A stretch of DNA of 64,000 bases from Candidatus Krumholzibacteriia bacterium. GTDB lineage: Bacteria > Krumholzibacteriota > Krumholzibacteriia > LZORAL124-64-63. The stretch covers positions 12,231-76,230 of the forward strand of contig DAOTGJ010000004.1 of assembly GCA_035447065.1 (NCBI GenBank), given 5' to 3'. This document shows, one piece after another, positions 9,122 through 64,000 of this stretch. The position numbers and the translations under genes are program-made. The notes beneath the pieces are model-generated. The model was not told the DNA's origin and made no database searches. It worked only from the letters and a program-made list of their open reading frames with translations. Each line of letters starts with the position of its first letter. Position 1 is the first letter of the stretch.

Positions 9122-9130
9122 GCGGCGCCG

Positions 9131-11386: not shown

Positions 11387-11411
11387 GGGGTCCTTCCCGG
11401 GGGGCTGGGGA

Positions 11412-14400
11412 TCAGAATTCGGGGCCGATGCTGAAGTGGAAGATGCCTTCCCCCGTGCTGCGCAGATCCGTGGGCCAGGCCCAGTCGAACTTGAGGGGGA
11501 GGAAGCCCAGGCTGGCCCTTATACCAAAGCCGTAGGAGCCCCGCAAGTCCCGCATGCCCCACTCGCCGGCGGCGTCGTGGCCCAGGAAGGCCACGGTCTC
11601 GCCGTCGGCCCAGGCGGTGCCGGCGTCGAAGAACACGGTGGCGCCGATGGGCCCCAGCCCCCAGCGCCCCGGCCAGCCGAAGATCAGCGCGTCCACCAGG
11701 GGCAGACGGTACTCCAGGTTCAGCATGACCAGGCGGCTGCCGGCCAGGTGCGGGTCCTGCTGGTAGTCGTAGAAGTCGTAGCCGCGCAGGGTGAAGGGGC
11801 CGCCCAGCACGAAGCCGCGCGGGTCGCGGCCCAGGCTCGCGGCGCCCAGCAGGCGCACGGCGAAGGTGTTCCGGCTCCAGGGCATGCCGTAGCGGCGCCA
11901 GTCCATCAGCACGGTGCGGCGGTCCAGGCTGTCGCCGCCGATGCCGATGGCCGGCGCGAAGTGCAGCTGCAGGCGGCTGCCGGTCACCGGACCGTGGTAG
12001 CCGTAGAAGGCGCTGTCGTGGCTGTACTCCAGCGTGGGCTGCAGCAGGTGGTGCTTCACGCTGCCGTCCTCCACCAGGTAGTAGCCCGACGGGTCCAGGG
12101 CGTACTGGGTGCGGATGGACGTGAGCGCCTGCAGGCCGATGCTCACGCGGCGGAAGGTGCTGAACGGGTAGGAGGCGTCGCAGACCAGACCGTAGTTGCG
12201 CTCGCTGAAGAAGGTGTCGTCGGGCAGCACCTCGCCCACGGTGGTGAACGCGGAGTTGTAGTAGTTCTTGAAGTGGAAGAGCCCCACGCCCAGGTCCCAG
12301 CGGTGCTTGAGGTAGGCGTAGCTGGCGGCCAGGTCGCTGTTCTCCAGCGACCCGTACACGTTGACCAGGAAGGACAGGCGCCGGTCGCCGAGCTGATCGC
12401 TGAAGTTGAGCACGTTGGCCATGCCCAGGCCGGCCTGCGGGCTGAAGAACACGGCGCCGCCGTCCAGGGCGCCGCTGGTGTCCAGGTGGAAGCGCGGGCT
12501 GTAGGGTTCCACATCGCCCACGGCGTCGGCGTCGCGCAGCGGAGGAGGGCCCTGCTCCGCCGTGACCAGCTCAGGCGGGTCGAAGGCCACGTCGCCGAGG
12601 GGCGCGCCGGCCGGCGTGCGGCGGGACCAGGCGCGGTAGCCGTCCACGGCGTGCAGGTCGTAGCCGCCGGCGAGGAAGGCCGTGAAGACCAGGCGGTCCG
12701 CGGCGCGGCTGTAGCTGGGCTGGGTGGCGGCGCCGGCCACGTTGGTGATCAGGCGCATGCGCGGCACGTCCGGGTCCGACACGTCCAGGGCCGCCAGGTT
12801 GGGCGTGCCGCCGCCCGCGTGGACCACGCAGAGCTCGGCGGCGTCGATCCACACCGGGTCGCGCCACTCCCCCTGCTCCGGGCGCAGGGCGCGGCGCGCG
12901 CCCGTGTCCGGGTCCAGCAGCACCAGGTCGCGGTCCTGGGCGTGGCCCACGCGCAGGGCCTCGTCGCCGTCCGCGAAACGGGCCCAGGCCAGGCGGCGCC
13001 CGCCGTCCGGCGTCTCCTCGAACTCGTACTCCACCGCGGCGCGGGGGTTGTGCACGAAGGCCAGGGTGCGGCCGTCGGGGCTCCAGGCGGGGGTCTCCTC
13101 GTCGCCGGCGTCGTCGGTGAGGCGGCGGCGGGCGGCGCCGTCGGCCAGGGGCGTCCAGCCGGGCGGGGGCGCGTCGCCGGCCTCCAGGTCCACCAGATGG
13201 AGGTCCGTGCGGCCCAGGGTCACGCCCACCAGGGCGATGGTGCGGCCGTCGGGGCTCCAGGCCGGCGCGCGGGCGCTGTCCAGGCCCAGGGGGATGGAGC
13301 GTGTCACGGCGCCGTCGTCCACGCGGATCGTGTGCAGGGTCTCGCGGGAGCCGCTGAGGGCCACGAAGGCGATCTCCGCGCCGTCGGGCGACCAGCTGAT
13401 GCCGCTGCGGAAGGAGTGGAAGCTCTCGAAGCGGTCCGCCCGGTGGCCGCGCGCCAGCCGGCGCACGCGCGCGGGGTCCAGCACGTCCAGCACGTAGAGC
13501 GACACCAGCCCGTCGCGGTCCGAGTAGAAGGCCGCGCGCAGACCGTCGGGCGAGAGGGCGGCGCGCTGGTTGAAGCCGTTGCCCTCCTCCTGATGGTCGG
13601 TCAGGCGGCGGGCGATGGCCTCCGGCTCCTCCAGGGTGCCGAAGGTGGGCCAGAACCAGCGCCGCGCCTCCAGCTGGAACTCGTCGTCCAGGTCCTCCAT
13701 GCGCAGGCCCAGCGTGCCCTCCAGGGTGCGATCCATGTTGCGGGTGCGCGCCAGCAGGCGCCACATCTCCACCAGCGTCTCCTCGCCGTAGCGCTCGGAG
13801 ATCATGCGCATGGCGGCCTGGCCCTCCTTGTAGACCAGGTAGCCGCCCACACGCGAGAGGGGCCAGAGGTAGTCGCGGGTGGCGGCGTCGCGCAGGACCA
13901 TCTCGGCGTTCTCGTCCCAGCCCGACGCGTACCACTCCGCCACGCCCTCGGCGAACCACAGCGGGATGCGGAAGAAAGGCGAGCGTGAGGCGCCGGCGCG
14001 GGAGCTGCCGAAGGCCATGTCGAACATGAAGACGTGCACCAGCTCGTGGCGCACCACGTGCACGAAGTCCGCGTGGTTGCCCTCGTAGGGCAGCACCATG
14101 CGGTTGCGCGAGGGCTCGGTGAAGCCGCCGGTGCCCTCGCCGAAGAGCTCGTCGGCGATGTTGGTCTGGGCGAACTCGCCGTGGCTGGCGTAGAGGATGA
14201 ACGGCACGCGCTTCTCGAGGTCGTGCCCCAGGCGCAGGGCGTACTCGCGGTAGGTGCGCTCGGCGATGATGGCCGCGCGCGCGGCCAGCTCGTCCGCGCC
14301 GTCGGCGTAGGTGATCTCGAAGTGGGGCGTGGTCAGGGTGCGCCAGTCGCGGTCGAAGGTCTGCACCTTGTTGCGGCCGAAGGCCTGGGCCCCGCCCGCG

Positions 14401-14450
14401 GTGCACAGCAGGACGAGCAGCAGCAGCGCGGCGCGGCGCGGAATGGTCAT
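11412..14450 (-). CDS. Omp85-family outer membrane beta-barrel protein with an N-terminal HExxH metallopeptidase-like domain and a TolB-like PD40 beta-propeller (unusual fusion)
   Basis: Signal peptide, then VRHELVHVF...WFAEGVAEWYA (HExxH plus downstream E, gluzincin-like). Multiple WSPDG PD40 repeats follow. The C-terminal barrel has the Omp85 L6 motif LRGY and ends ...GIFHFSIGPEF (aromatic terminus), paralogous to the adjacent Omp85 C-terminus. Confidence 0.7.
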   Translation of the reverse strand: MTIPRRAALLLLVLLCTAGGAQAFGRNKVQTFDRDWRTLTTPHFEITYADGADELAARAAIIAERTYREYALRLGHDLEKRVPFILYASHGEFAQTNIADELFGEGTGGFTEPSRNRMVLPYEGNHADFVHVVRHELVHVFMFDMAFGSSRAGASRSPFFRIPLWFAEGVAEWYASGWDENAEMVLRDAATRDYLWPLSRVGGYLVYKEGQAAMRMISERYGEETLVEMWRLLARTRNMDRTLEGTLGLRMEDLDDEFQLEARRWFWPTFGTLEEPEAIARRLTDHQEEGNGFNQRAALSPDGLRAAFYSDRDGLVSLYVLDVLDPARVRRLARGHRADRFESFHSFRSGISWSPDGAEIAFVALSGSRETLHTIRVDDGAVTRSIPLGLDSARAPAWSPDGRTIALVGVTLGRTDLHLVDLEAGDAPPPGWTPLADGAARRRLTDDAGDEETPAWSPDGRTLAFVHNPRAAVEYEFEETPDGGRRLAWARFADGDEALRVGHAQDRDLVLLDPDTGARRALRPEQGEWRDPVWIDAAELCVVHAGGGTPNLAALDVSDPDVPRMRLITNVAGAATQPSYSRAADRLVFTAFLAGGYDLHAVDGYRAWSRRTPAGAPLGDVAFDPPELVTAEQGPPPLRDADAVGDVEPYSPRFHLDTSGALDGGAVFFSPQAGLGMANVLNFSDQLGDRRLSFLVNVYGSLENSDLAASYAYLKHRWDLGVGLFHFKNYYNSAFTTVGEVLPDDTFFSERNYGLVCDASYPFSTFRRVSIGLQALTSIRTQYALDPSGYYLVEDGSVKHHLLQPTLEYSHDSAFYGYHGPVTGSRLQLHFAPAIGIGGDSLDRRTVLMDWRRYGMPWSRNTFAVRLLGAASLGRDPRGFVLGGPFTLRGYDFYDYQQDPHLAGSRLVMLNLEYRLPLVDALIFGWPGRWGLGPIGATVFFDAGTAWADGETVAFLGHDAAGEWGMRDLRGSYGFGIRASLGFLPLKFDWAWPTDLRSTGEGIFHFSIGPEF

Positions 14451-14465: not shown

Positions 14466-17400
14466 CTAGTACTCGAAGCGGTACTTCAGGTCCACGCTGT
14501 ACGTGGTGTTGCCCAGGGCCTCGTCCAGGCGCCGGTTGATCTCGGACTGCAGCACCAGGTGGTCCGAGATCTGGTACTCCACCAGCACCTCGCGGTCCTG
14601 GTCCGTCACGGCCTGGGCGAAGCGCACGTAGAGGTCCCGCCCGATGTACTTGCCCACCCCCACCAGGGTCTGCATGGTGCCGTCGGCGCGCTCGCGCCCG
14701 CCGATGATGTCGAAGGTGTCCACCACGTCGAGCTGCTGCGCCACCTCGCGCTCCAGAAGGTTGAAGCCGGCGGCCACGGTGCCGCGCCGGATCTCGCCCA
14801 CGGTGGGCGAGTCGGCCGCGTGGGGCGACAGCCCCAGCAGCATGCGCTCGATGCTCTGGCGCGGATAGCCGCTCTCGCTCAGGAACGTCACCGTGGGCCC
14901 CGTGGCCGGTCCGGTCAAGGTGATCCAGATGCGCTCCAGGCGCCGGTTCACGTTCTCCGCGCCCTGGGGCGCCGGCAGCCGCACCTGCGTCTCCGCGGAG
15001 ATGTCCAGCTCCGGCACCGGACCGCGTCCGCTCAGGAACGTGGCCGTGCCCGCCGTCACGCGGAAGTCGTTGTTGAACACCGGCAGATGGCCCTGGTCGA
15101 TGGCCAGCTCGCCGCGCACGTCCATGCCGCCCTCGTCGCGGGTCAGGCGCACGTCGCCGCCCAGGTCCAGCTCCATCTGGTTGTTCTGCACGCTCACCGT
15201 GCGCGGCGGGGCGTGGATGGCCAGGTCCGCCAGCCAGTCCGGCGCCACCGTGCCGATGCGCGGGTCCACCACGCCGGCCTGCTCCGAGAAGTCGCCCGTG
15301 TAGCGGGCCTGGATCACCTCCAGGTCGCCGGTGAACATGGGCACGATGAGGCTGTCCGGCCCCACCTTCACCCCGGTGAGCTTCAGGGCGTCGCTGCGCA
15401 CCAGGGCGCGCACGTCCGGGATGGACGACACCAGGAAGCGGTCCGCCTCCAGGTCCACCTCGAAGGTCTCCAGCACCAGGCCGCGGAAGGTCAGCGTGCC
15501 GTCGCCTCGGACCGTGCCGCGCATGCCCTCGCGCCCGCGGATGTCGCGCAGGGTCAGCACGTCGCCCTGCCACACGCCGTCGGCGTTGATGTCCGCGTAC
15601 ACCTCGTTGAGGCGGCGGATCACCATGGAGCCGTCGCGCACGCGCAGGCTGCCGGAATAGTACGGATGATCGGCGCGTCCGGAAACCACCAGGTCCAGGC
15701 CGCCGGAGCCGCCCGCGGAGACGAAGGCGTTGGTGGCCTCGGCCAGGGGCGCCAGGTCCGAACCCTCCGGAATGGTCAGGCTCATGTAGAGCGGGCCGTC
15801 CAGGGGCGAGACCGGCTCCGAGTGGAAGTCCATCTCCAGGGGGATCTCGATGCGGCCGCTCAGATCCAGCGTCCCCTTGCGTCCCTGCAGGTCCGACAGG
15901 GTGAGCTGGCCGGGCTCGTAGGCCACGCCGCCCTGCAGGCGGTCCAGGTGCAGCCAGTGCACGTGGAAGGGTTCGCTGGTCAGCCCGCCCTCGATGCGCG
16001 GCGCCAGGGTGGTGCCGCCGATCTCCACGCTGCCCCGGAAGCGGCCGGCGATGCGGTCCAGCGCGGGGATCTCGAACTGGTCGATGAAGGCCCAGTCGCC
16101 GTCCAGCACGTCCAGGTGCAGGTCCAGGGCGGCGCCGCGCCACCACTCCTCCACCAGGTCCGTGCCCGGGTGCGACACGGCGCCCGACGCTCGCAGGCGG
16201 CCGTGGTCGCTGGCCAGTTCCACCTGGTGCAGGTCCAGCACGCCGTGGCTGAAGTCCAGGTCCACGGTCACCGTGTCCAGACGCGCCAGGGGGAAGTCGG
16301 CGTCGGTCAGGCGCGCGGTGAGCGCGGCCAGGGGCGCGTCGGGGCTGCCGCCCAGGCCGCAGCGGGCGGAGACGCGGCCGTTGAGCACGGGCTCGGCCAG
16401 GAACGGGTTGATGAGCTCCAGGTCCAGGGTGGCCAGGTCCACCTCGCCGCTCAGGGTGCCGGCGGGCTCGTCCCAGTCGATGGCCGCCGCCAGACGGCCC
16501 TGGGCGCTGCTCAGCTCCGCGGGCCGCAGGCGGAACACGCCGGGGCCGGCCTCCAGGCGCACCGTGTCCCCCACCGCCCACGTGGCGCCCTCCAGGTCCA
16601 GCGCCAGGTCCGCCACGCGCATGGCGGCCAGGCCGTCGCGGAAGGCGGCGTCGCCGTGGAAGGCCAGCACCGTGTCGCCGCGCTCGGTGCGGAAGCGCGA
16701 GAGCTCGGCGCGGCGGGCGTCCACCATGCCGGCCAGGCCGAAACGCCCGAAGGGCACGCCGCCGGCCCGCAGGCCGTCGCCCTCCGCCTCCAGCCACACG
16801 CCGGGGTCGCGCAGGGCGTCGGTCACGGTGATCTCCACGCGGGTCTCGGCGGCCTCCAGGCGCTCCAAGCCGGCGTCGTGGAGCAGCACGTTGCCGGCGA
16901 AGTCGAAGACCGGGTCCACGCCGCGCACCTCCCCCGACGCCCGCAGGCGCCCGTGCAGCGGCGGGGCGGGCCACTCCTCGGGCAGCCGCGAGAGATCCGA
17001 CGAGAGCACGTCCAGCCGGCCGCGGAAGTTGCCGTCCAGATCCGCGCGACCGTCCAGGCGGGCCTTGGCCGCGCCGTAGATCAGGTCCAGGCTGTGGAAG
17101 GTCACGCCGGCGGCGTCGCCGGCCACCAGCACGTGCAGGGAGTCGAAGGGCACGTCGGCCACGTGGCCGTCGCGCAGCCAGCCGCGCACCAGGGTGGACT
17201 CCTGGGCCTCGCGGCGCCAGATCTCCACCTCGCCCCAGCCGTCGGTGGGCGGCAGCTCCACGTCCGGCACCAGGCCGCGGGACAGGTCCACGTCGGCCAC
17301 GCTGCCGGTGACACGGAAGATCACGTCCTCGGTGTCGGTCACGTCGAAGCGGCCGCGGCCGCTGACCAGGGCGCCGTTGAGGCGGCCGGCCAGGGAGTGG

Positions 17401-18308
17401 AAGTCCAGGAAGCGGGGCGACAGGGTGGCGCGGCCGGTGAAGTCCCGGAACTCGTAGCCCTCCAGCTCGCCGGTGAAGTCCACGTCGAAGTCCAGGGTGT
17501 CGCCGTGGGCGTGCAGGTCCATGCGCACGTCGCCCCGGGCCTGGAAGCCCAGGGTCATGTCGATGAGCTCCTCCACCTCCACCGCGTCCACGCGCTGGGC
17601 CTCCACGCGCAGGTCCAGCGAGGCGTCGGCGCGGCGCACGCCGGAGACCAGGACGGTGCTGTCGTTGAGGCGGCCGCTCAGCTGATCCACGTGCAGGTCG
17701 CCGTCGCGCAGGGCCACGGCGCCGCGCAGGTCGGAGAGCCGGGCGTCGCGGGTGGTCCAGTCCAGGGCGGCGTCCACGGCGGAGATGCGGATCTCGTCGC
17801 CCAGGCGCAGGGAGCCCCGCCAGTCCAGGCCGGTGACCTCCTGCTCCAGGCGGCCGTCGGCGTCGGCCAGGGACAGGGCGCCGTGCAGCACCTCCAGGTC
17901 GTGGATCACCAGGCCGGGCAGGCCGCCGCCGCGGGCCTCGCCGTCGCCCGGCTCGCCGCGCACGCCGCGCACCTCCGGCCCCACCATCAGCACGCGCTTC
18001 AGCTCGTAGGGCTGGCGCAGCAGGGCGTGCAGGTCGTAGGCCAGCGACAGGGTGTCCACCCCCACCACGGTGGTGCCGCCGCCGGCGCCGGGCAGGGTGA
18101 GGGTCACGTCGTAGAGGGTCACGCCGCGCAGCGGGTTGCCGGCGTAGTCGGCGAAGCGCACGCTGCCGTGGGCGCCCAGCAGGTGGCGCGTGGCCAGGCG
18201 CGAGAGCCACGGCGCGGTGCTGGCGGGGTGCGTGGCCAGCCAGGCCACCACGCCCGTGAAGAGCACGACCGCCACCAGCAGCGTCCAGCGTGTCGCCCGC
18301 ACCAGCAT
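14466..18308 (-). CDS. tamB: TamB-like translocation and assembly module protein (AsmA-like/DUF490)
   Basis: 1280 aa with an N-terminal TM anchor and long repetitive beta-rich periplasmic region. The C-terminal DUF490-like end ...LVLQSEINRRLDEALGNTTYSVDLKYRFEY. It lies immediately downstream of the Omp85 gene with a 1-nt overlap. Confidence 0.75.
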   Translation of the reverse strand: MLVRATRWTLLVAVVLFTGVVAWLATHPASTAPWLSRLATRHLLGAHGSVRFADYAGNPLRGVTLYDVTLTLPGAGGGTTVVGVDTLSLAYDLHALLRQPYELKRVLMVGPEVRGVRGEPGDGEARGGGLPGLVIHDLEVLHGALSLADADGRLEQEVTGLDWRGSLRLGDEIRISAVDAALDWTTRDARLSDLRGAVALRDGDLHVDQLSGRLNDSTVLVSGVRRADASLDLRVEAQRVDAVEVEELIDMTLGFQARGDVRMDLHAHGDTLDFDVDFTGELEGYEFRDFTGRATLSPRFLDFHSLAGRLNGALVSGRGRFDVTDTEDVIFRVTGSVADVDLSRGLVPDVELPPTDGWGEVEIWRREAQESTLVRGWLRDGHVADVPFDSLHVLVAGDAAGVTFHSLDLIYGAAKARLDGRADLDGNFRGRLDVLSSDLSRLPEEWPAPPLHGRLRASGEVRGVDPVFDFAGNVLLHDAGLERLEAAETRVEITVTDALRDPGVWLEAEGDGLRAGGVPFGRFGLAGMVDARRAELSRFRTERGDTVLAFHGDAAFRDGLAAMRVADLALDLEGATWAVGDTVRLEAGPGVFRLRPAELSSAQGRLAAAIDWDEPAGTLSGEVDLATLDLELINPFLAEPVLNGRVSARCGLGGSPDAPLAALTARLTDADFPLARLDTVTVDLDFSHGVLDLHQVELASDHGRLRASGAVSHPGTDLVEEWWRGAALDLHLDVLDGDWAFIDQFEIPALDRIAGRFRGSVEIGGTTLAPRIEGGLTSEPFHVHWLHLDRLQGGVAYEPGQLTLSDLQGRKGTLDLSGRIEIPLEMDFHSEPVSPLDGPLYMSLTIPEGSDLAPLAEATNAFVSAGGSGGLDLVVSGRADHPYYSGSLRVRDGSMVIRRLNEVYADINADGVWQGDVLTLRDIRGREGMRGTVRGDGTLTFRGLVLETFEVDLEADRFLVSSIPDVRALVRSDALKLTGVKVGPDSLIVPMFTGDLEVIQARYTGDFSEQAGVVDPRIGTVAPDWLADLAIHAPPRTVSVQNNQMELDLGGDVRLTRDEGGMDVRGELAIDQGHLPVFNNDFRVTAGTATFLSGRGPVPELDISAETQVRLPAPQGAENVNRRLERIWITLTGPATGPTVTFLSESGYPRQSIERMLLGLSPHAADSPTVGEIRRGTVAAGFNLLEREVAQQLDVVDTFDIIGGRERADGTMQTLVGVGKYIGRDLYVRFAQAVTDQDREVLVEYQISDHLVLQSEINRRLDEALGNTTYSVDLKYRFEY

Positions 18309-20407
18309 CAGAACGGATACCCCAGCGAGAAGTGATAGACCACGCGGCTGTCGGCGTCGGTCTCCGACGTGCGCGCCCGCTTCAGCGGGAAGCCCACGTC
18401 CACGCGCACCGGTCCCACGGGCGTGTCCACGCGCACGCCCGTGCCCAGGCTCCAGCGGTAGTCGGTGAGCTTGGTGGAGGCGTCGTCCTCAGGATCGCCC
18501 GGGTCCGAGGTGAGCCGGAAGTCCTCCAGGCTCACGTCGCGCAGGCGCTCCCACACGTTGCCGCCGTCCAGGAAGAACACGCCGCCCACGTTCCACGCGC
18601 TGAGCACGGGCACGGGGAAGCGCCACTCCACGTTGCTCAGCAGCAGGTAGTTGCCGCCGCGGGCGGGCTGGTCCGGCAGGGGCACGTCGCTGGAGAGCTG
18701 CAGGCTGTCCAGCAGGGCCGGATCCGTGATCTGGGGCCCCAGGCTGCGCTCCTCGTAGCCGCGCACCGACGACACGCCGCCGGCGAAGTAGCGCTCCTGG
18801 TACGGCACCCCGTCGGCGCCGCGGTCCAGCGACCCGGCGTAGGGCCGCACCACGCCCGCGCTCACCCGCACGGCCAGCACGCCGCCCAGGGGGGTGCCCG
18901 TGTAGCCGTGCCAGCTCGAGGACAGCTTCCAGAAGGAGTTGTCGCCGCCCAGGGGGCCGCCGGCCACCTCGGCCAGGCCGGTGCGCAGGGAGCCGCGGCG
19001 GGGACGCACCGGGTCGTCGCGCTCCTCGTCGTACACGTTCCAGCTCAACGAGCGGGTGGAGGCGGCGGTGAGCCCGGCGGCGCGCCAGCGGTTCTGCATC
19101 TCCTCGATGGCGTCGGGATGGATCTCCGGCTCCACGCGCTCCACGCCGAAGGCCAGCGTGTTCACGGTGTGGTCGCCGGGCCGGAAGCGCGTGCCCGTGC
19201 GGAAGCCGCGCGTGCGCAGGTTCAGGCCCGACTCGCCGCGGGTCTCCTTCTCGACGTAGAAGTTGGTGTCCAGGCCGAAGCGGCCCAGCAGGTCCGGGTA
19301 GTTGTGGTTCAGCTCGTAGTGGTAGTTCAGCTCCGGGTCCGCCGCGCCGTCGCTCAGGCGCTGCACGTCCTCGTAGTTGAGGGCGTTGCGCGCGCGCAGG
19401 CCCAGCTTCTGACCCGTGCCGAAGAGGTTGTTGTGGCCCCAGCCGGCCAGCACGCGGATGCGCTCGCGGCTGCCCACGCCGAAACCGAACTCGTAGTAGG
19501 CGGGCTTGCGCTCCACCACCACCACCTCCAGGTCCGCCAGGCCCAGCAGGCTGTCCATGCGCGTGGGGCGGAAGGAGACGTCGCGGAACAGGGACGTCTC
19601 CACCAGGCGGTCGCGGGAGTCCTCCACCGCGCTCCAGCGGAAGAAGGCCCCGGGCTTGACCTGCAGGCGCTTGCGGATCAGCTCCGGCCGCGTGCGCTCC
19701 GCGCCCACGATGGTCACGTCGCCCACCACGTAGCGCGGGCCGGGACGCACGTGGTAGGCCAGCGCGGCGCCCAGGTGCAGGGAGTCGGGCGGCGCGGCGG
19801 GGCGCAGCTCCGGATCGATGGTCACGCCCAGGTGCCCGCGCTCCCAGAGGCCGGTGCGCAGGCGGTAGAGGTCCGGGCCCAGGTCGTTCAGGTCGCCGGG
19901 CGCGGGCACGCCGGGGCGGTAGCGGAGCTGCTCGCGCAGGCCCAGGTCCACCAGACCCTCGGCGCCCGGAAAGGACACCTCCACCAGGTCCGTGCGCGGA
20001 CCCTCGGTCACGCCGATGCGGATCACGTCGCCGCGGCCCTCGGGATCCTCCGTCACCGTGAGCAGCTCCACGCGCACGTCGTGGTAGCCGCGCTGGCGGT
20101 ACCAGCGCGCCAGCACGCCCAGCTCCACCTCCAGCAGATGGGGCTGGTAGCGGGCGGTGCGGTCCGACAGGCCCAGGAGCATGAGGGGATGGAAGCGGCG
20201 GGGCTCGCGGATCTTGAGCAGGCTCCTGAGCTCGCCGTCGTCGAAGGCCCGGTTGCCCTCGATCAGGATGCGGAAGACCTGGTGCTGCTCCAGGCCGAAA
20301 TCCAGCTCGCTCACCGCGGCGGCGCGGCCGACGCCCAGCAGGACGAGGCCGCACAGGAGCAGAAGCGTGCGGCTCACGCGGCCGCTAGCGTGCCGGGGGA
20401 AACTCAT
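18308..20407 (-). CDS. Omp85-family outer membrane protein assembly factor (BamA/TamA-like, POTRA plus barrel)
   Basis: Signal peptide, POTRA-like repeats, barrel with VRGY L6 motif, ending ...VYHFSLGYPF. It sits in the position occupied by bamA downstream of rseP in proteobacteria. Confidence 0.8.
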   Translation of the reverse strand: MSFPRHASGRVSRTLLLLCGLVLLGVGRAAAVSELDFGLEQHQVFRILIEGNRAFDDGELRSLLKIREPRRFHPLMLLGLSDRTARYQPHLLEVELGVLARWYRQRGYHDVRVELLTVTEDPEGRGDVIRIGVTEGPRTDLVEVSFPGAEGLVDLGLREQLRYRPGVPAPGDLNDLGPDLYRLRTGLWERGHLGVTIDPELRPAAPPDSLHLGAALAYHVRPGPRYVVGDVTIVGAERTRPELIRKRLQVKPGAFFRWSAVEDSRDRLVETSLFRDVSFRPTRMDSLLGLADLEVVVVERKPAYYEFGFGVGSRERIRVLAGWGHNNLFGTGQKLGLRARNALNYEDVQRLSDGAADPELNYHYELNHNYPDLLGRFGLDTNFYVEKETRGESGLNLRTRGFRTGTRFRPGDHTVNTLAFGVERVEPEIHPDAIEEMQNRWRAAGLTAASTRSLSWNVYDEERDDPVRPRRGSLRTGLAEVAGGPLGGDNSFWKLSSSWHGYTGTPLGGVLAVRVSAGVVRPYAGSLDRGADGVPYQERYFAGGVSSVRGYEERSLGPQITDPALLDSLQLSSDVPLPDQPARGGNYLLLSNVEWRFPVPVLSAWNVGGVFFLDGGNVWERLRDVSLEDFRLTSDPGDPEDDASTKLTDYRWSLGTGVRVDTPVGPVRVDVGFPLKRARTSETDADSRVVYHFSLGYPF

Positions 20408-20476
20408 CTTGCTCCGCGCCCCGATTCATCCCATGCTCCCGTGCGTCGACCCGCGAGGTCCGTCCCGGAGGTCATC

Positions 20477-20884
20477 ATGCCGCGTCGCGTCCTGCCGCTC
20501 GTCTGCCTCTGCGCGCTGCTCCTGCCGCTGGCGTCCTGCCGCGAGGAGAACGCGCCCCTGGGCGTGTCCGACCTCACTCCGGCCGAGCTCGAATACGTCA
20601 CCCGTTTCGTCCAGCTCGAACGGGCCCGGGCCGTCTCCCTGCGGGACCGTCCCGCCGGCGAGGCCCTGCTGGATTCCATGGCCGCGGCCTGGGGCGACTC
20701 CGCCCTGGCCCGCGCCGAGGCCGCCCTCTCGCCGGACACCGATCGTCTGGCCGCCTTCCACGACCTGCTGTCCCGCCTGCTCGAGGCCGAGGAGGACAGC
20801 CTCCTGGAGAACCCGTCGCCGGAACGCCTGACCGCGCCCCTACCGGCGCCCGCCACGGACGATCCGCCGCCGCCGCCCTCCTAG
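20477..20884 (+). CDS. small predicted lipoprotein, function unknown
   Basis: This is the 3' part of track ORF 18290..20884. An internal ATG at 20477 gives MPRRVLPLVCLCALLLPLASC (lipobox LASC), then 110 aa of helical, acidic sequence. The rest of that long ORF is antisense to the Omp85 gene. Confidence 0.45.
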   Translation: MPRRVLPLVCLCALLLPLASCREENAPLGVSDLTPAELEYVTRFVQLERARAVSLRDRPAGEALLDSMAAAWGDSALARAEAALSPDTDRLAAFHDLLSRLLEAEEDSLLENPSPERLTAPLPAPATDDPPPPPS

Positions 20885-22263
20885 CTGGGGATCACCCGCA
20901 GCACGTCCTTCACGATCACCGTGATCATGAACAGCATGAGCACGATGAGTCCCACCTGCGTGGCGATGGCCTGCACCCGCTGGTGCACAGAGCGGCCGAA
21001 GACCATCTCATAGAGGATGAACACCACGTGTCCGCCGTCCAGCACCGGGATGGGCAGCAGGTTCAGCAGGAACAGGTTCACGCTGAAGAAGGCCACGAAC
21101 TGCATCAGGTGGCCGAAGCTCCAGCGCAGCATCTCCCCGGCCACCTGCCCCACGCGGATGGGACCGCCCACGGCGTCCATGCCCGCGTCGAAGATCAGCG
21201 GCAGCGACCCCACGATGCCCATGACCGTGCCCCAGGTGGCGCGCCAGCCCAGGGCCACCGCGCTCAGCGGCCCCACGGCCTCCGACTCGAAGTAGCGTTC
21301 GAAGTTCAGGCGCCCCACGGTGGAGTCCGGCAGCACCTCCACCGCCTCGGGCGTGACCAGGGCCTGCATGGCGCGTCCGTCGCGCTCCCAGGCCACGGTC
21401 AGCGCACGGCCCGGATTGGCGCTCACGATGCGGGCGATGCTCCCGAAGGAGCGCACCGTCTCGCCGTCCACGCTCACGATGCGGTCGCCCCGCTGCAGAC
21501 CCGCCTCCGCGGCCGGGCCGCCCTTCTGCACCAGGCCCACGCGCGTGTCGCCGGGCTCCAGCCCCACGTTCCAGACGCCGTCCTCCAGGCCGGGCCGCAG
21601 GGTCACGGTGCGGGTCGCCCCGTCGCGCTCCACCTGCAGGTCCACGGGCCCCGGCGCCGGGTCGGCGGCCTGCGAGGCCTCCACCACGGCGTCGGTCACC
21701 GCGGTCCAGTTGTGCACGGCGTGGGAGCCCACGCCCACGATGCGGTCGCCCACCTGCAGCCCCGCCGCCGCCGCCGGCGAGTCCGCGCGCACGTGGCCCA
21801 CCTCCGTGGTGGGCACCACCATGAGGCCCGTGTCCCACACGCTGCCCGTGAAGATCACGAAGGCCAGCAGCAGGTTGGCCAGCGGTCCCGCCACCACCAC
21901 GGCCAGACGCTGCCACGCGGGCCGCGCGCGGAAGTGGCGGTGCTCGGGGATGGCGTCGTCGCGCATGGCCGCGAGCTGGTCGCCCTCCGCCGTGCCGATG
22001 GGATAGTGGTACTGCTCGCCGGTGCCGGCGTCCTGGATCTCCTCCATGACGCCCTCCCCCGCCATCTTCACGTAGCCGCCGAAGGGCACGGCGCTCAGGG
22101 CGTACTCCGTCTCCCCGTAGCGCCAGCGCAGCAGCTTGGGGCCGAAGCCGATGGAGAAGGTCTTCACGTAGATCCCCGTCCACTTGCAGACGAGGAAGTG
22201 CCCCAGCTCGTGGATCAGGATCACGAGCCCCAGGGTCACGACGAAGGCGATCAGGATGGACAT
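20881..22263 (-). CDS. rseP: RIP metalloprotease RseP (site-2 protease, M50 family with PDZ domains)
   Basis: The true start is MSILIAFVVTLGLVILIHELGHF (HExxH in TM1). PDZ domains are present, and the C-terminal LNLLPIPVLDGGHV motif. The track ORF over-extends 5' into dxr. Confidence 0.9.
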   Translation of the reverse strand: MSILIAFVVTLGLVILIHELGHFLVCKWTGIYVKTFSIGFGPKLLRWRYGETEYALSAVPFGGYVKMAGEGVMEEIQDAGTGEQYHYPIGTAEGDQLAAMRDDAIPEHRHFRARPAWQRLAVVVAGPLANLLLAFVIFTGSVWDTGLMVVPTTEVGHVRADSPAAAAGLQVGDRIVGVGSHAVHNWTAVTDAVVEASQAADPAPGPVDLQVERDGATRTVTLRPGLEDGVWNVGLEPGDTRVGLVQKGGPAAEAGLQRGDRIVSVDGETVRSFGSIARIVSANPGRALTVAWERDGRAMQALVTPEAVEVLPDSTVGRLNFERYFESEAVGPLSAVALGWRATWGTVMGIVGSLPLIFDAGMDAVGGPIRVGQVAGEMLRWSFGHLMQFVAFFSVNLFLLNLLPIPVLDGGHVVFILYEMVFGRSVHQRVQAIATQVGLIVLMLFMITVIVKDVLRVIPS

Positions 22264-22283: not shown

Positions 22284-23516
22284 TCAGGCGCGGGCGCGGC
22301 GCTGCAGGAGATCGCGGGCGGCGTCGCGGGCCGCGGCGTCGGCGGCCAGGGCGTCGTCCAGGGAGCGCACCGGCGCGGCGGGCGTCGCCGCGAGGACGTC
22401 GCCGATCACCGCGGCGATGTCGGAATAGCCCACACGGTCGGCCAGGAACGCCGCCACGGCCACCTCGTTGGCGGCGTTGAGCGCGATGGTGGCCGTGCCG
22501 CCCGCCTCGCCCGCGGCGCGCGCCAGGGCGAGGCAGGGGAACCGCTCCGGATCCGGCCGCTCGAAGCGCAGCTCGCCCAGGGCCGCCAGGTCCAGCCGCG
22601 GTCCGTCCAGGGGCTCGTGCCGCTCGCCCCACACGGCGTAGAGCAGGGGCACGCGCATGTCCGGCGCTCCGAGCTGGGCCATCACCGCGCCGTCGCGGAA
22701 CTCGGCCAGAGAATGCACGATGGAGCCGGGATGCACCACCACGTCGATGTCCCGGTACGGGGTGCCGAAGAGCACGTGCGCCTCGATCACCTCCAGGCCC
22801 TTGTTCATCAGCGTGGCCGAGTCCACCGAGATCTTGGGGCCCATGTCCCAGGTGGGGTGGGCCAGCACCTCGGCGCGGGTGGCCGCGGCCATGCGCTCCG
22901 CGCTCCAGGTGCGCAGGGGGCCGCCCGATGCGGTCAGGATCAGGCGCGCCAGCTCCCGCGGACGGCGCCCGCTCAAACACTGCGCCAGGGCCGAGTGTTC
23001 CGAGTCCACGGGGATGATCCTGGCGCCGTGCCGCGCCGCGGCCTCGCGCACCAGGTCCCCGCCCATGACCAGGGCCTCCTTGTTGGCCAGGGCCAGGGTG
23101 CGGCCGCGGGCGCAGGCGGCCAGGGTGGGCGGCAGGCCCGCGGCGCCCACCAGGCCGTTGACCACCACGTCCACGTCGCCCAGGCCGGCGGCCTGGGCCA
23201 CGCCCTCCGCCCCCGGCGGCAGCAGCCGGCGGCCCAGCACGGGGTCCGCGGCGGCGCGGGCGTGGGCCTCGGCGTCGGCCACGGCGATCCAGGGCCGGTC
23301 CGCGGCGCCGGAAGCCTCCAGTCGGCGCACCAGCGCGGCCAGCTCCTCGGTGCGGCTGTTGGCGGTGAGCACGGTCACGCGCAGGCGCTCGGGGTCGCGC
23401 AGCACCAGGTCCAGCATCTGGGTGCCGATGGAGCCCGTGGCTCCCAGCACCGCCAGGCGCACCGGCGCCTCGGGGCGGCGCGGGGGCTCGCCCATCGCGT
23501 ACAGGGCGCCGCTCAC
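22284..23516 (-). CDS. dxr: 1-deoxy-D-xylulose 5-phosphate reductoisomerase
   Basis: LAVLGATGSIGTQ NADPH motif, ..ANKEALV.., ..DSEHSAL.., 410 aa. Confidence 0.9.
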   Translation of the reverse strand: MSGALYAMGEPPRRPEAPVRLAVLGATGSIGTQMLDLVLRDPERLRVTVLTANSRTEELAALVRRLEASGAADRPWIAVADAEAHARAAADPVLGRRLLPPGAEGVAQAAGLGDVDVVVNGLVGAAGLPPTLAACARGRTLALANKEALVMGGDLVREAAARHGARIIPVDSEHSALAQCLSGRRPRELARLILTASGGPLRTWSAERMAAATRAEVLAHPTWDMGPKISVDSATLMNKGLEVIEAHVLFGTPYRDIDVVVHPGSIVHSLAEFRDGAVMAQLGAPDMRVPLLYAVWGERHEPLDGPRLDLAALGELRFERPDPERFPCLALARAAGEAGGTATIALNAANEVAVAAFLADRVGYSDIAAVIGDVLAATPAAPVRSLDDALAADAAARDAARDLLQRRARA

Positions 23517-24388
23517 GAGGCCCAGCCCAGCGCCAGGGCCCAGTAGAGGATCGGCGCGTTGAAGAAGAGGGAATCGAAGCGGTCCAGCACGCCGCCGTGG
23601 CCGGGCAGCAGGCCGGCGGTGTCCTTCACGCCGGCGTCGCGCTTGAGGGCCGACTCCACCAGGTCGCCCACCTGGCCCGCCACGCCGCAGATCAGGCCCA
23701 GCGTCAGGCCGGCCAGCGGCGAGAGAAGCGGCGCGCCGAAGGTCTCGGCCACCAGCCAGCCGGCCGCGCCGGCCGCCAGCAGGCCGCCCACGGCGCCCTC
23801 CCGCGACTTCTTGGGCGAGATGCTGGGCACCAGGGGCGTGCGGCCCATGCTCACGCCCACCACGTAGGCGAAGGTGTCGCAGGCCCAGGTGACCGCGGCC
23901 AGAAGGCCCAGGGCGCGGGCGCCGGCCAAGGGATCGGGGTGCTCCAGCCCGCGCAGCAGCCCCAGGTGCGCGCCGGGCAGGGCCACGTAGACCACGCCGA
24001 AGACGGAGGTGGCCACGTCGGCCACGAAGCCGCGCCGGTCGCGGCGCAGCAGCGTGGCGCTGCTGAGCACGAGGACGGCGGCGGTGATCAGGGCCACCGC
24101 CGGCCAGCCGCGCTCCAGGCCCGCCGCCACGCCGCCGCCCAGCAGCAGCATGGCCGCCTGGAAGGGGCGCCGCCCGGCGGCGCGGGCCAGCAGCTCGTAC
24201 TCCCGCAGGCCCAGCAGCACGACGGCCAGCACCAGGGCCTGGAAGCCCAGGCCGCCGTGGTATCCCAGCCAGATCAGCAGGGGTGCGCCGACGAGCGCCA
24301 CCAGGGTGCGCGGCAGGATGCCGGATCCGAGAAACCGGCCCCTGCGGGAGCCGGTCACGGGGTCGGGGGGCGGGGGCGCGCCGCTCAC
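23513..24388 (-). CDS. cdsA: phosphatidate cytidylyltransferase
   Basis: Multi-TM protein with the CdsA C-terminal signature (SxxKRxxGVKDxGxLxPGHGGxxDRxDS: ..SALKRDAGVKDTAGLLPGHGGVLDRFDS..). It sits in the uppS-cdsA-dxr-rseP context. Confidence 0.8.
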   Translation of the reverse strand: MSGAPPPPDPVTGSRRGRFLGSGILPRTLVALVGAPLLIWLGYHGGLGFQALVLAVVLLGLREYELLARAAGRRPFQAAMLLLGGGVAAGLERGWPAVALITAAVLVLSSATLLRRDRRGFVADVATSVFGVVYVALPGAHLGLLRGLEHPDPLAGARALGLLAAVTWACDTFAYVVGVSMGRTPLVPSISPKKSREGAVGGLLAAGAAGWLVAETFGAPLLSPLAGLTLGLICGVAGQVGDLVESALKRDAGVKDTAGLLPGHGGVLDRFDSLFFNAPILYWALALGWAS

Positions 24389-25230
24389 GAACGCACCTTC
24401 AGCAGACGTTTCCAGCGCTCGGGATCCAGCAGGGAGCCGCCGCCGGCCGCCGGGGCGGCGTCGTCGCCCAGGGCGCCGAAGCGCCGCTCGCGGCCCTGGA
24501 AATCCTGCACGGCCAGCATGAACTCGCGCTCGTCGAAGTCCGGCCAGAAGGTGGGCGTGAAGTACATCTCGGCGTAGGCGCTCTGCCAGATGAGGAAGTT
24601 GCTGAGGCGGTGCTCGCCGCTGGTGCGGATCACCAGGTCCGGGTCCGGCAGGTCCGGCGAGTCCAGGCCGGCGCGCAGCTCGTCCTCGTCCACCTGGTCC
24701 GGGGTGATCTCGCCGCGGGCCACGCGCTCGGCGGCGCGGCGGGCGGCGCGCACGATCTCCGCGCGGCCGCCGTAGGCCAGGGCCAGGTTCAGGGTCAGGG
24801 CCGAGTTGCCGGCCAGGCGGTCGATGCCGCCCTGCAGGGCCGCGCGGGCGCGCTCGGGGATGCTCTCCAGGTCGCCGGTGGCGGTCAGGCGCACGCCCTG
24901 CTGGTCCAGGGCGTCGATCTCGCTGCCCAGCACCTCCTGCAGGAACATCCAGAGGGCCTTGACCTCGGCCTCCGGCCGCTTCCAGTTCTCCTGGGAGAAG
25001 GTGTAGAGGGTGAGCACGTCCACGCCCAGGCGCAGGCAGGCCGCCACGGTGCGGCGCACGGCGTGGCGCCCGGCCCGATGGCCGGCCACGCGGGGCAGCC
25101 GGCGGCGGCTGGCCCAGCGCCCGTTGCCGTCCATGATCACGGCCACGTGGCGCGGGATGTTCCCCGCCGCCTTGAGCTCCCGCTCCAGGGCGTCCAGATC
25201 CGCGGCGGTGGTGGCCTTGGCGTCGCTCAC
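24385..25230 (-). CDS. uppS: isoprenyl transferase / undecaprenyl diphosphate synthase
   Basis: HVAVIMDGNGRWA and ..LTLYTFSQENWKRP.. UPPS motifs. Confidence 0.9.
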   Translation of the reverse strand: MSDAKATTAADLDALERELKAAGNIPRHVAVIMDGNGRWASRRRLPRVAGHRAGRHAVRRTVAACLRLGVDVLTLYTFSQENWKRPEAEVKALWMFLQEVLGSEIDALDQQGVRLTATGDLESIPERARAALQGGIDRLAGNSALTLNLALAYGGRAEIVRAARRAAERVARGEITPDQVDEDELRAGLDSPDLPDPDLVIRTSGEHRLSNFLIWQSAYAEMYFTPTFWPDFDEREFMLAVQDFQGRERRFGALGDDAAPAAGGGSLLDPERWKRLLKVRS

Positions 25231-25232
25231 GC

Positions 25233-25781
25233 TCAGATCTCCATGATCTCCGCTTCCTTCTCCTTGACGAGCTTGTCGATGTCGTCGCAGAAGCGGTCGG
25301 TCAGTTTCTGGACCTCGTCCTTGGCGGCGCGCGCCTCGTCCTCGGTCATGTCGTCGGCCTTCTTGATGGCGTCGTTGGCCGACTGCCGGGCCTTGCGCAC
25401 CGCCACCTTGCCCTGCTCGCCGAATTCACGGGCGTTCTTGGACATCTCGCGGCGGCGCTCCTCGGTCAGCTCCGGGATGGGCACGCGGATCACGTTGCCG
25501 TCGTTGCTGGGGTTCAGTCCCAGGCCGGCGGCCATGATGGCGCGCTCGATGTCGTTCAGGGTGGAGCGGTCGAAGGGCGCCACGGTCAGCAGCCGCGGCT
25601 CCGGCACGCCGATGTTCGCCAGCTGCTTGAGCGGCGTGGGCGAGCCGTAGTACTCCACGCGCACCGGATCCAGCAGCGCGGGCGTGGCCTTGCCCGTGCG
25701 GATCTTCGCCACGCGGCGGGCCAGGGCCTGGACCGCCTCCTCCATTTCCATCTCGGCTTCCTGCACCAGTTCGTGGCTCAT
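25233..25781 (-). CDS. frr: ribosome recycling factor
   Basis: 182 aa: ..VRVEYYGSPTPLKQLANI.. and ..VPIPELTEERRREMSK.. Confidence 0.9.
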   Translation of the reverse strand: MSHELVQEAEMEMEEAVQALARRVAKIRTGKATPALLDPVRVEYYGSPTPLKQLANIGVPEPRLLTVAPFDRSTLNDIERAIMAAGLGLNPSNDGNVIRVPIPELTEERRREMSKNAREFGEQGKVAVRKARQSANDAIKKADDMTEDEARAAKDEVQKLTDRFCDDIDKLVKEKEAEIMEI

Positions 25782-26545
25782 CTTGCGGACTCCTTGGTCA
25801 CCAGGGTGCCCTCCAGCTCCCCCCGCACCACGCGGCGCAGGTTGTCGGGATCGGAGATGTCGAAGACCATGATCGGCATGGCGTTCTCCTCGCAGAGGGC
25901 CAGGGCCGTCAGGTCCATGACGCGCAGTCGACGGTCGATGGCGACGTCGAAGCTCAGCGTGTCGTAGCGCACGGCGTCGGCGTGCCGCTTGGGATCCTTG
26001 TCGTACACGCCGTCCACCTGGGTGCCCTTCAGCAGGATGTCGGCCTGGATCTCCAGGGCGCGCAGGGCGGCGGCGCTGTCGGTGGTGAAGTACGGGTTGC
26101 CCGTGCCTCCCCCGAAGATCAGCACGGTCCGGTCCTGCAGCAAGGGCAGGGCCCGGTCCCGCGAGAAGGCCCGGCCCAGGGGCGGGCGCTCGTCCGGCGT
26201 CAGCACCACGGCGCGGGTGCCCTCGGCGCGCAGGTAGTCGCGCAGCACGGCGGCGTTCATCATGGTGGCCAGCATGCCCACGTGGTCCGCGGTGACGCGG
26301 TTCATGGTGTCCAGGTTGGCCGAGCGGGCCCGGAACAGGTTGCCCGCGCCCACCACCACGGCGATCTGGACCTTCTCCTCCACCAGGTCGGCGATGACGC
26401 GGGCCAGCGCCGCCAGCTTCTCGTGGCCGAAGGGATCGCCGTCGGCGGCCAGGGCCTCACCGCTGAGCTTGAGCAGGATGCGCGAATAGCGGTTGGAGAC
26501 CACGGCGTCCTCCCGCGGCGCCGCCCAGGCGACGCCGGATGGCAT
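25778..26545 (-). CDS. pyrH: UMP kinase
   Basis: YSRILLKLSGEAL, VVGAGNLFRA, FGGGTGNPYFTTDSAAALRA. The N-terminal ~15 aa may be over-extended. Confidence 0.85.
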   Translation of the reverse strand: MPSGVAWAAPREDAVVSNRYSRILLKLSGEALAADGDPFGHEKLAALARVIADLVEEKVQIAVVVGAGNLFRARSANLDTMNRVTADHVGMLATMMNAAVLRDYLRAEGTRAVVLTPDERPPLGRAFSRDRALPLLQDRTVLIFGGGTGNPYFTTDSAAALRALEIQADILLKGTQVDGVYDKDPKRHADAVRYDTLSFDVAIDRRLRVMDLTALALCEENAMPIMVFDISDPDNLRRVVRGELEGTLVTKESAR

Positions 26546-26589
26546 AAAAAAAGGCCCGGACCCAAACGAGTCCGGGCCCGATGCGGCGT

Positions 26590-27183
26590 CTAGCCGCCGA
26601 TCTGGAAGCGCACGAACCGCTTGATGGCCATGTTCTCGCCCAGCGACCCGATCTTGCTCTGCAGGAACTCCTGGATGGTCATGTCCGGGTCCTTCACGTA
26701 GGACTGCTCCAGCAGGCAGACCTCGCTGTAGAACTTGTCTACCTTCCCCGCCACGATCTTGTCAATGATATTGTCCGGCTTGCCCTCTTCCTTCATCTGG
26801 GCCTTGTAGATCTCGGCCTCCTTCTGGACCAGCGAGGCGTCCACGCTCTCGCGGTCGAGGGCCTGAGGGCTGGCGGCGGCGATGTGCATGGCCACGTCGT
26901 GGCAGAACTGCTTGAACTCGTCGGTGCGGGCCACGAAGTCCGTCTCGCAGTTGATCTCCAGCAGCACGCCCACCTGGCCGCCCTGGTGGATGTAGCTCTC
27001 CACCAGGCCGTTGGCCGTGGCGCGGCCTTCCTTCTTGGCGGCCTTGGCGATGCCCTTGGTGCGCAGGTACTCCACGGCCTTGTCGAAGTCGCCGTCGCTC
27101 TCGGTCAGCGCCTTCTTGCAGTCCATCATGCCGGCGTTGGTGGCCGCGCGCAGGTCGGCGACCATCTTGGCGGTGATTCCCAT
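26590..27183 (-). CDS. tsf: elongation factor Ts (short form, ~197 aa)
   Basis: The true start is MGITAKMVADLRAATNAGMMDCKKAL with a GGAGGA RBS 4 nt upstream. The track ORF over-extends into rpsB. Confidence 0.85.
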   Translation of the reverse strand: MGITAKMVADLRAATNAGMMDCKKALTESDGDFDKAVEYLRTKGIAKAAKKEGRATANGLVESYIHQGGQVGVLLEINCETDFVARTDEFKQFCHDVAMHIAAASPQALDRESVDASLVQKEAEIYKAQMKEEGKPDNIIDKIVAGKVDKFYSEVCLLEQSYVKDPDMTIQEFLQSKIGSLGENMAIKRFVRFQIGG

Positions 27184-27287
27184 GATCTCCTCCGTCGGAC
27201 GGCGTTCCCGTCCGTGTTGGTTCTGGTCCTGGTTGACGAGCGGGAGCGCGGGCCGCCGTCCGCGCGGGGCGGACGGCGGCCGCGGGA

Positions 27288-28076
27288 TCAGTCGCCGGCG
27301 GGCGCGGCGGCGTCGGCGCCGTCGCTGCTCACGGTGGCGGCGCCGGAGGCCGCGGTGGCCTTCTGCACGTCCACGGCGTCGCGGCCCTCGCGGCGCGCGC
27401 TGCGGCCCTCGAGGATCGAGTCGCAGGCCATGCGCGCGTAGAGCGAGATGGCGCGGATCGCGTCGTCGTTGCCCGGCACGGGAATGGTCACGGGCTCGGG
27501 ATCGCTGTTGGTGTCCACCACGCCGATGACCGGGATGCCCAGCTTGTTGGCTTCCTTGACGGCCGTCTCCTCCTCCACCGTGTCGATGATGAACACCGCG
27601 GCGGGCAGGCCCTTCATGTGGCGGATGCCGCCCAGGTCCTTGGACAGCTTCACGTACTGGCGGTCGATCTGGAGCTGCTCCTTCTTGGAGTGCTGCTCGA
27701 TCTTGCCGGTCGCGCGCAGGCCCTCGATGTGCTCGAGCTTGTGGACGCTCTTGCTGATGGTCTGCCAGTTGGTGAGCATGCCGCCCAGCCAGCGCTCGGT
27801 CACGTAGGGCATGCCGCACTTCTCGGCCGCCTCGCGCACCGCCACCTTGGCCTGCTTCTTGGTGCCCACGAAGAGCACGCTGCCGCCCTTGGCCGCCACG
27901 ACCTGGAGGAAGTCGCTGGCCTTGTAGAGGGCCTTGAGGGTCTTCTGGAGATCGATGATGTAGATGCCGTTGCGGGCGATGAAGATGTAGGGACGCATCT
28001 TCGGGTTCCACTTGCGGGTCTGGTGCCCGAAGTGGACGCCGGCCTCGAGCAGGTCGCGCAGTCCGACATTGGCCAT
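27288..28076 (-). CDS. rpsB: 30S ribosomal protein S2
   Basis: MANVGLRDLLEAGVHFGHQTRKWNPKM...; 262 aa with an acidic C-terminal tail. Confidence 0.95.
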   Translation of the reverse strand: MANVGLRDLLEAGVHFGHQTRKWNPKMRPYIFIARNGIYIIDLQKTLKALYKASDFLQVVAAKGGSVLFVGTKKQAKVAVREAAEKCGMPYVTERWLGGMLTNWQTISKSVHKLEHIEGLRATGKIEQHSKKEQLQIDRQYVKLSKDLGGIRHMKGLPAAVFIIDTVEEETAVKEANKLGIPVIGVVDTNSDPEPVTIPVPGNDDAIRAISLYARMACDSILEGRSARREGRDAVDVQKATAASGAATVSSDGADAAAPAGD

Positions 28077-40603: not shown

Positions 40604-40679
40604 GCGACTCCCCGGCCTGATGCGGATCCCACGACGATGTGACCCCACAACGTACCAGAGAACGCGGCAAAAGTCCAAT

Positions 40680-63875: not shown

Positions 63876-64000
63876 CCCGCTCCGCTTCCGGAGCGGCGGC
63901 GTCCGCGGGCGCGGCGGCGTCCTTGCGGCGCTCGTCGGCGTAGTTGAGCTGCAGCTCCATGACCACGCGGTCCAGGTGCGTGGTGATCTCCGGGGCCAGG
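63866..64000 (-). CDS. hypothetical protein, C-terminal fragment (5' part outside the window)
   Basis: Reverse-strand reading frame with strong GC3 bias: ..LAPEITTHLDRVVMELQLNYADERRKDAAAPADAAAPEAERDEA*. The stop overlaps the start of the TSP3 gene. Confidence 0.4.

Follow-up and report, generated by a model that had tools for sequence, protein, structure and literature searches.

Operons in which bamA lies beside tamB, with neither TamA nor TamL, have been documented (PMC4494059), and the TamB of Borrelia binds BamA (PMC5582053). The Omp85 partners in these operons carry either five POTRA domains, as in the Spirochaetes, where the protein is the sole BamA, or six to seven, as in duplicated BamAs. 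In the stretch of 64,000 nucleotides analysed here (the window; Candidatus Krumholzibacteriia bacterium, GenBank assembly GCA_035447065.1, contig DAOTGJ010000004.1, positions 12,231 to 76,230 of the forward strand), a 699-residue Omp85 protein with three POTRAs is encoded directly upstream of a 1280-residue TamB-like protein, and on balance we favour the view that the locus represents the BamA-TamB module in its Krumholzibacteriota form. It falls into a known class, the BamA/TamA-TamB operons, as a mildly unusual member from an unstudied phylum. It has in common with described BamA-TamB operons a BamA-type Omp85 beside a co-oriented tamB, whose product bears an anchor at the N-terminus and DUF490 at the C-terminus (PMC4494059, PMC5582053), and with those of Acidobacteria the gene order bamA then tamB, but it differs from them in lying in the rseP-bamA slot together with a conserved lipoprotein gene and a gene for a protease/propeller-Omp85 protein. 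The features of the locus, in window coordinates, are as follows.

18308..20407, minus strand: Omp85 protein of the short BamA type, 699 residues with a signal peptide (Pfam, NCBIfam, AlphaFold2 (AF2) model)
19511..20284, minus strand: three POTRA domains of this protein (residues 42-134, 139-221 and 227-299), beta-alpha-alpha-beta-beta units in the AF2 model
18311..19501, minus strand: 16-strand Omp85 barrel of this protein (residues 303-699) with the C-terminal end ...FSLGYPF (PF01103, AF2 model)
14466..18308, minus strand: TamB/AsmA-like protein, 1280 residues (PF04357)
11412..14450, minus strand: second Omp85-barrel protein, 1012 residues (Pfam, AF2 model)
20408..20476, no strand: divergent intergenic gap of 69 nucleotides, where the promoter of the Omp85-tamB unit is presumed to lie
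20477..20884, plus strand: lipoprotein gene, 135 residues (called in three assemblies)
20881..22263, minus strand: rseP, site-2 metalloprotease, 460 residues (PF02163, 206 bits; TIGR00054, 279 bits, above cut-off; start from the called gene)

The lengths, coordinates and one-nucleotide overlap that a first-pass annotation of the bare sequence had given for the Omp85 and tamB genes were exact, the junction reading ...ttcTGATGctg, in which the stop codon TGA and the start codon ATG have one base in common. The gene for the 1012-residue protein begins 15 nucleotides after tamB, with GGAGG ahead of its start, and uvrD begins 25 nucleotides after that gene. The window has a guanine-cytosine (GC) content of 73%, and a filter on third-position GC (GC3) was used to tell real genes from the many spurious open reading frames (ORFs); the Omp85 and TamB frames were both intact, with a strong coding signature (GC3 of 0.97-0.98, GC1>GC2 pattern). 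Gene identities were assigned from Pfam and NCBIfam profile matches (pyrH, frr, uppS, cdsA, dxr, rseP, Omp85, TamB), with rplM, rpsI, rpsB and tsf confirmed via the called genes of an assembly with an identical Omp85 protein; this identical 699-residue protein was present in ENA, Logan and JGI assemblies.

The resulting minus-strand order was rplM, rpsI, rpsB, tsf, pyrH, frr, uppS, cdsA, dxr, rseP, the 699-residue Omp85, TamB, the 1012-residue protein and uvrD/pcrA. In E. coli this block occurs too and ends in rseP-bamA-skp-lpxD, with dxr sited elsewhere. The Omp85 gene therefore sits in the conserved uppS-cdsA-rseP-bamA neighbourhood. It had been described as following rseP at the end of this supercluster, and it is indeed the next gene on the same strand, in the order seen in E. 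coli, although the plus-strand lipoprotein gene at 20477-20884 intervenes. As this opposite-strand gene separates Omp85 from rseP, the Omp85-tamB unit needs a promoter of its own, from which both genes would be co-transcribed.

To follow this arrangement across the phylum, relatives were collected in a scan with one genome per species (431 relatives), and 80 loci from distinct genomes were fetched, nearly all of them labelled with names beginning "Krumholzibacteri" or only vaguely, and ranging from 42 to 73% GC. The rseP gene was found upstream of Omp85 in 62 of the 63 loci with room for it, and TamB downstream of Omp85 in 63 of 64, with protein identities of about 31-99%, and each related locus had exactly one POTRA-bearing Omp85. 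With the third gene, that of the propeller-Omp85 protein, standing next to tamB in 30/52 loci, the arrangement cannot be put down to chance. In one respect the first-pass reading was supported, as the pair is an Omp85-tamB operon that occupies the ancestral place of bamA. It could be held that the adjacency has no functional meaning, or that one of the two genes is decaying, and the consensus scans gave such a view something to stand on, since no sigma-70 consensus was found in the gap upstream of Omp85 and the promoter and terminator scans yielded nothing useful in DNA of 73% GC, so that operon boundaries were not independently supported. The start/stop overlap, the intact and strongly coding frames and above all the conservation of the pair over so wide a range of GC and identity effectively refuted it, however, and we regard it as very improbable.

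In sequence, the 699-residue Omp85 was BamA-like and not TamA- or TamL-like. Pfam matched PF01103 with 159 bits at residues 327-698 as well as the POTRA family PF07244, and the NCBIfam scores were 234.4 bits for the BamA model (TIGR03303, cut-off 297.15), 65 bits for the TamA model (NF047950, cut-off 625) and 103 bits for the TamL model (NF052279, cut-off 400), with close relatives of the protein reaching 263-279 bits on TIGR03303. BamA chains from the PDB scored 157-165 bits against it, compared with 56-64 for TamA, and hhalign gave 218.6 for E. coli BamA and 103.3 for E. coli TamA. All three POTRAs aligned with BamA POTRAs, the first two with BamA POTRA3-4, and only weakly with those of TamA; the first two POTRAs of TamA and TamL are divergent (PMC4104836), and the TamA-type divergent POTRA1-2 were not seen in our protein. 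The barrel had the 16 strands and the loop-6 VRGF/Y motif of BamA, the VRGY residues (V548-R549-G550-Y551), invariant in 52 sequences, aligning with the VRGF motif of BamA loop 6. The N-terminus (...LLLLCGLVLLGVGRAAAVSE) lacked a lipobox, and hence the lipoprotein signal peptide with invariant cysteine that marks TamL, so that the protein is not a TamL.

The AF2 model of the protein (mean predicted local distance difference test score (pLDDT) 82.9, from a 52-sequence alignment) comprised a signal peptide, three POTRA units and the 16-strand barrel. The alignment with TIGR03303 started at model position 151 and ran to the end, the PDB chains of E. coli and Neisseria BamA aligned from residue ~175, which is the start of POTRA3, hhalign matched profile columns 47-698 to residues 175-807 of E. 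coli BamA, and against a profile of 18 five-POTRA BamAs the match began at position 182 of 756. The three POTRAs are thus the equivalents of BamA POTRA3-5. In E. coli BamA, only POTRA3-5 are known to be essential. The first-pass annotation had offered the POTRA count as a way to tell BamA (five) from TamA (three), and the model and alignments returned three; taken at face value this goes against BamA in its canonical proteobacterial form. POTRA number alone was not decisive, however, because cyanobacterial BamA has three (PMC4104836) and a chain of 659-675 residues has been deposited in the PDB as Fusobacterium BamA. Cyanobacterial BamA and the plastid proteins Toc75/Oep80 resemble the Krumholzibacteria protein as three-POTRA, BamA-type insertases (PMC4104836) that can be the main Omp85 and that work alongside a TamB homologue. 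They differ from it in belonging to an unrelated lineage, in which POTRA reduction would be independent, and in that cyanobacterial POTRAs are partly of the TpsB type. The TamB homologue that partners Toc75 is TIC236, and we know of no operon link between cyanobacterial BamA or Toc75 and a TamB homologue.

The positional orthologues of a sister lineage in the same phylum bore further on this assignment. In its three loci, three-POTRA orthologues of 640-677 residues occupied the same slot, in the order rseP, small gene, Omp85, TamB, protease/propeller protein, uvrD, and representatives of this family cleared the TIGR03303 cut-off with 300-330 bits, members being named BamA by NCBI. As the orthologue fills the same slot there, the phylum as a whole keeps a single short gene of BamA type where bamA belongs, and the differing NCBI names of the positional orthologue ("BamA" or "BamA/TamA family") follow from scores that straddle the TIGR03303 cut-off. 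The earlier claim of a BamA orthologue thus held as regards sequence likeness and the sister-lineage scores, while the protein itself stayed under the BamA cut-off. One protein family of 640-658 residues, named BamA and labelled "Krumholzibacteri", was considered as a second BamA and rejected, its genomic context identifying it as this sister-lineage positional orthologue and not a paralogue.

We judge it slightly more probable than not that the 699-residue Omp85 is the organism's main, and perhaps only, BamA. A real but lesser likelihood attaches to its being a dedicated partner of TamB (a TamA analogue or a "duplicated BamA"), in which case a canonical five-POTRA BamA and BamD encoded elsewhere would do the bulk of assembly, and the pair would be an accessory translocation and assembly module (TAM) that serves particular substrates or the flow of lipids. 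Several observations weighed on that side. Three POTRAs and a barrel are the architecture of TamA and TamL, and a gene just upstream of tamB within a shared operon is typical of TamA; E. coli TAM likewise combines three POTRAs and a 16-strand barrel with an overlapping downstream tamB of ~1260-1280 residues and a conserved TamB C-terminal strand motif. The protein missed the BamA equivalog cut-off (234 vs 297 bits), and its own NCBI name is merely "BamA/TamA family". With the AF2 model, Foldseek gave BamA as best matches (E 1e-38) and E. coli TamA as the highest target-normalised template modelling score (TM-score; 0.77), a comparison without power to separate BamA from TamA and not used as decisive. 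In a rough neighbour-joining tree, the short forms clustered with TamB-linked Omp85s of ~900 residues (the named ones from Nitrospirota) and not with canonical five-POTRA BamAs, although the deep nodes were weak and the clustering, which may just mirror species phylogeny, was likewise not treated as decisive. Acidobacteria and Aquificae are known to have duplicated BamAs that pair with TamB (PMC4494059), and one example was found among our loci (L005). "BamA-like" Omp85s with one to three POTRAs, which like the protein described here bear POTRAs, are shorter than BamA and are distinct from TamA, invariably accompanied a true BamA in the 2014 survey (Heinz & Lithgow 2014), which keeps a TamA-like reading alive. 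Bacteroidota also keep a separate BamA beside TamL. Krumholzibacteriota, left unplaced by NCBI taxonomy, are presumably close to Bacteroidota, following GTDB.

Other observations spoke against a dedicated partner. The TamA and TamL models matched the protein weakly, far under their cut-offs, and POTRA1 and POTRA2 are of the BamA type and not the divergent TamA/TamL type; from E. coli TAM the locus further differs in that the Omp85 lies at the bamA position and not at a separate locus. TamL-TamB of Bacteroidota/Chlorobi also shows a three-POTRA Omp85 as the partner of TamB outside Proteobacteria (PMC12045153), but the Krumholzibacteria protein differs from TamL in its missing lipobox and low model score, and in Bacteroidota tamL and tamB do not share an operon whereas the two genes overlap here. 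In all genomes examined it was this Omp85 that filled the bamA slot, none of the loci showed a further Omp85 with POTRAs, and the sister-lineage orthologues exceeded the BamA threshold.

A second bamA was sought in the window, in 10 kb past its right end (read from GCA_035399505.1, DAOPJE010000002.1) and in about 85 loci, each up to 23 kb long (~1.6 Mb), none of these being a complete genome, which limits how far the searches can speak for a sole BamA. No second bamA was found by Pfam searches of every sizeable gene in the window or by three profiles run on all six-frame ORFs of the window and of every fetched locus, which matched just the two Omp85 proteins described here, and no bamD was found in the window. 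No Omp85 with five POTRAs turned up in the window, in the adjoining 10 kb on its right or, up to 10 kb from the Omp85 gene, in the related loci. None of the sequence searches gave a five-POTRA BamA attributable to or labelled as Krumholzibacteria, and none of the 12 distant matches listed in a word-based search lay on a contig matching the clade. An exhaustive profile search ranked the family itself first, then three-POTRA proteins of 600-690 residues, then forms of ~900-980 residues, with canonical five-POTRA BamAs reaching just 235-265 bits. The ~900-980-residue Omp85s were considered as the phylum's second BamA and rejected; the named ones were from Nitrospirota and one other stood beside its own tamB. 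These searches also brought to light a large and diverse public set of Omp85s of 600-690 residues starting at the equivalent of BamA POTRA3, ten of which were scored against the BamA model and gave 225-330 bits, most of them lacking a lipobox. The 10 kb past the right end contained lipopolysaccharide (LPS)-core and housekeeping genes and no Omp85. Among these genes, 3-6 kb past window position 64000, were Kdo-transferase-like (Glycos_transf_N) and heptosyltransferase (Glyco_transf_9) genes; LPS-core genes adjoining the window indicate LPS core synthesis and hence a true outer membrane, which the cell must build.

The TamB protein matched PF04357 with 126.5 bits (gathering threshold 22.4) over residues 923-1280 (nucleotides 14469-15542), so that its DUF490 domain lies well above gathering at a length within the usual ~1200-1300 residues. 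An N-terminal hydrophobic anchor could be read directly from the sequence as the stretch RWTLLVAVVLFTGVVAWLAT (residues ~8-27, nucleotides 18228-18287), and the C-terminal end, ...DLKYRFEY, aligned right up to its final residue with that of E. coli TamB. The proteobacterial TamB equivalog NF047952 was not reached (31 vs 825 bits).

The first-pass annotation had called the protein downstream of tamB a third Omp85 paralogue; its gene comes third in the cluster, and it is one of just two Omp85-domain proteins found in the window, the second. Its 1012 residues comprise a signal peptide, a metalloprotease-like domain with the motif HELVH (residues ~36-280), a TolB-like beta-propeller (~293-603) and an Omp85 barrel (~679-1012), in which neither Pfam nor the AF2 model showed a POTRA. 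Pfam scores were 68 bits for PD40 and 61 bits for Omp85, with Peptidase_MA_2 under cut-off, and the AF2 model (pLDDT 84.7, predicted TM-score (pTM) 0.83) matched TolB and BamA barrels in Foldseek. A TolB-like propeller fused N-terminally to a POTRA-less Omp85 barrel is the hallmark of the WD40-Omp85 subfamily, an uncharacterised class (Heinz & Lithgow 2014), from which the 1012-residue protein differs in its additional HExxH (Peptidase_MA_2-like) domain and its conserved position directly after tamB. Apart from the 30/52 loci already mentioned, the propeller-Omp85 was next to tamB in the three sister-lineage loci and in CP070677.1; where it stands beside tamB it is directly downstream of it, except in one locus (L084), where it lies upstream of the Omp85 gene. 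Of 8000 scored candidates, 3252 were matched by the 1012-residue protein at E<=1e-5. As a guess, it may be a barrel-anchored periplasmic protease, and a BepA-like quality-control role would be speculation.

CP070677.1, a complete 4.3-Mb genome labelled Latescibacterota, carries a rearranged cluster at 8253-13285, with a 541-residue TamB-domain gene followed by the propeller-Omp85. Upstream, addA/addB-like helicase genes stand in place of rseP-Omp85, and downstream uvrD, gatCAB, MeaB and methylmalonyl-CoA mutase follow in the order of the window. It was set aside, as it says nothing about BamA. Public labels of genomes with a Krumholzibacteria-type locus were in general inconsistent, including "uncultured Fibrobacteraceae", "Gemmatimonas sp.", "Gemmatimonadales", "Latescibacterota", "Eiseniibacteriota" and "bacterium".

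The 135-residue protein encoded between rseP and Omp85 is a lipoprotein whose signal ends in MPRRVLPLVCLCALLLPLAS|C (...LLPLAS|C). Its gene converges on rseP with a 4-nucleotide overlap and diverges from the Omp85 gene. No relative of it was found in Pfam, NCBIfam or the PDB, while a homologue occurred at the same spot in 61 of 63 related loci and a lipobox in 58 of the 71 matches. The lipoprotein is a candidate accessory part of the Omp85/TamB machine.

The housekeeping block upstream, which spans 22284..28076, comprised the following genes beyond rseP, all identified from Pfam and called genes.

27288-28076, minus strand: rpsB
26590-27183, minus strand: tsf
25778-26545, minus strand: pyrH
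25233-25781, minus strand: frr
24385-25230, minus strand: uppS
23513-24388, minus strand: cdsA
22284-23516, minus strand: dxr

Elsewhere in the window, two minus-strand ORFs, of 498 residues (39174-40670) and 509 residues (62346-63875), had no Pfam match. The latter showed faint NCBIfam similarity, far under cut-off, to TraB and MtsC, the myxobacterial outer-membrane exchange and cohesion proteins.

Taking the locus as a BamA-TamB module, the 699-residue Omp85 would be a BamA-family insertase that has kept just the three barrel-proximal POTRAs and the 16-strand barrel and inserts beta-barrel proteins, its gene being coupled to tamB in translation. An N-terminal helix would fix TamB in the inner membrane, its long beta-rich groove would span the periplasm, and the DUF490 domain at its C-terminus, with the last beta-strand, would dock on the Omp85, so that TamB would form a bridge along which substrates, lipids or both could pass. 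This bridge model follows proposals for TAM, for Borrelia BamA-TamB (PMC5582053) and for Bacteroidota TamL-TamB. Omp85 and TamB would then work as one trans-envelope machine for beta-barrel insertion and probably for phospholipid transport to the outer membrane, and that their genes are translationally coupled and linked throughout the phylum supports a stoichiometric complex of the two. [quoted passage not shown] The operon would run on into the barrel-anchored metalloprotease-like/propeller protein, and this protein, together with the small lipoprotein whose gene flanks the operon, may be an accessory part. A broader proposal, which we put forward tentatively and consider rather doubtful, is that in Krumholzibacteriota, and perhaps in many uncultured lineages with BamA-like proteins of 600-690 residues, a three-POTRA BamA is the sole insertase, hard-wired to TamB as a hybrid of TAM and the machinery for assembling beta-barrels (BAM), with new accessory parts (the conserved 135-residue lipoprotein and an outer-membrane-anchored metalloprotease/propeller that could serve in BepA-like quality control) replacing the proteobacterial lipoproteins.

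Were a canonical BamA encoded elsewhere, the locus would be one more TamA-like duplicate, of value mainly for better annotation. If instead the 699-residue Omp85 is the sole BamA of the phylum, it would be a natural minimal BamA outside cyanobacteria, with the equivalents of POTRA3-5 only and in an operon with TamB. This would point to the small lipoprotein and the barrel-anchored protease/propeller as two candidate accessory factors, and would support BamA-TamB as the ancestral trans-envelope unit, of which TamA and TamL would be later specialisations.

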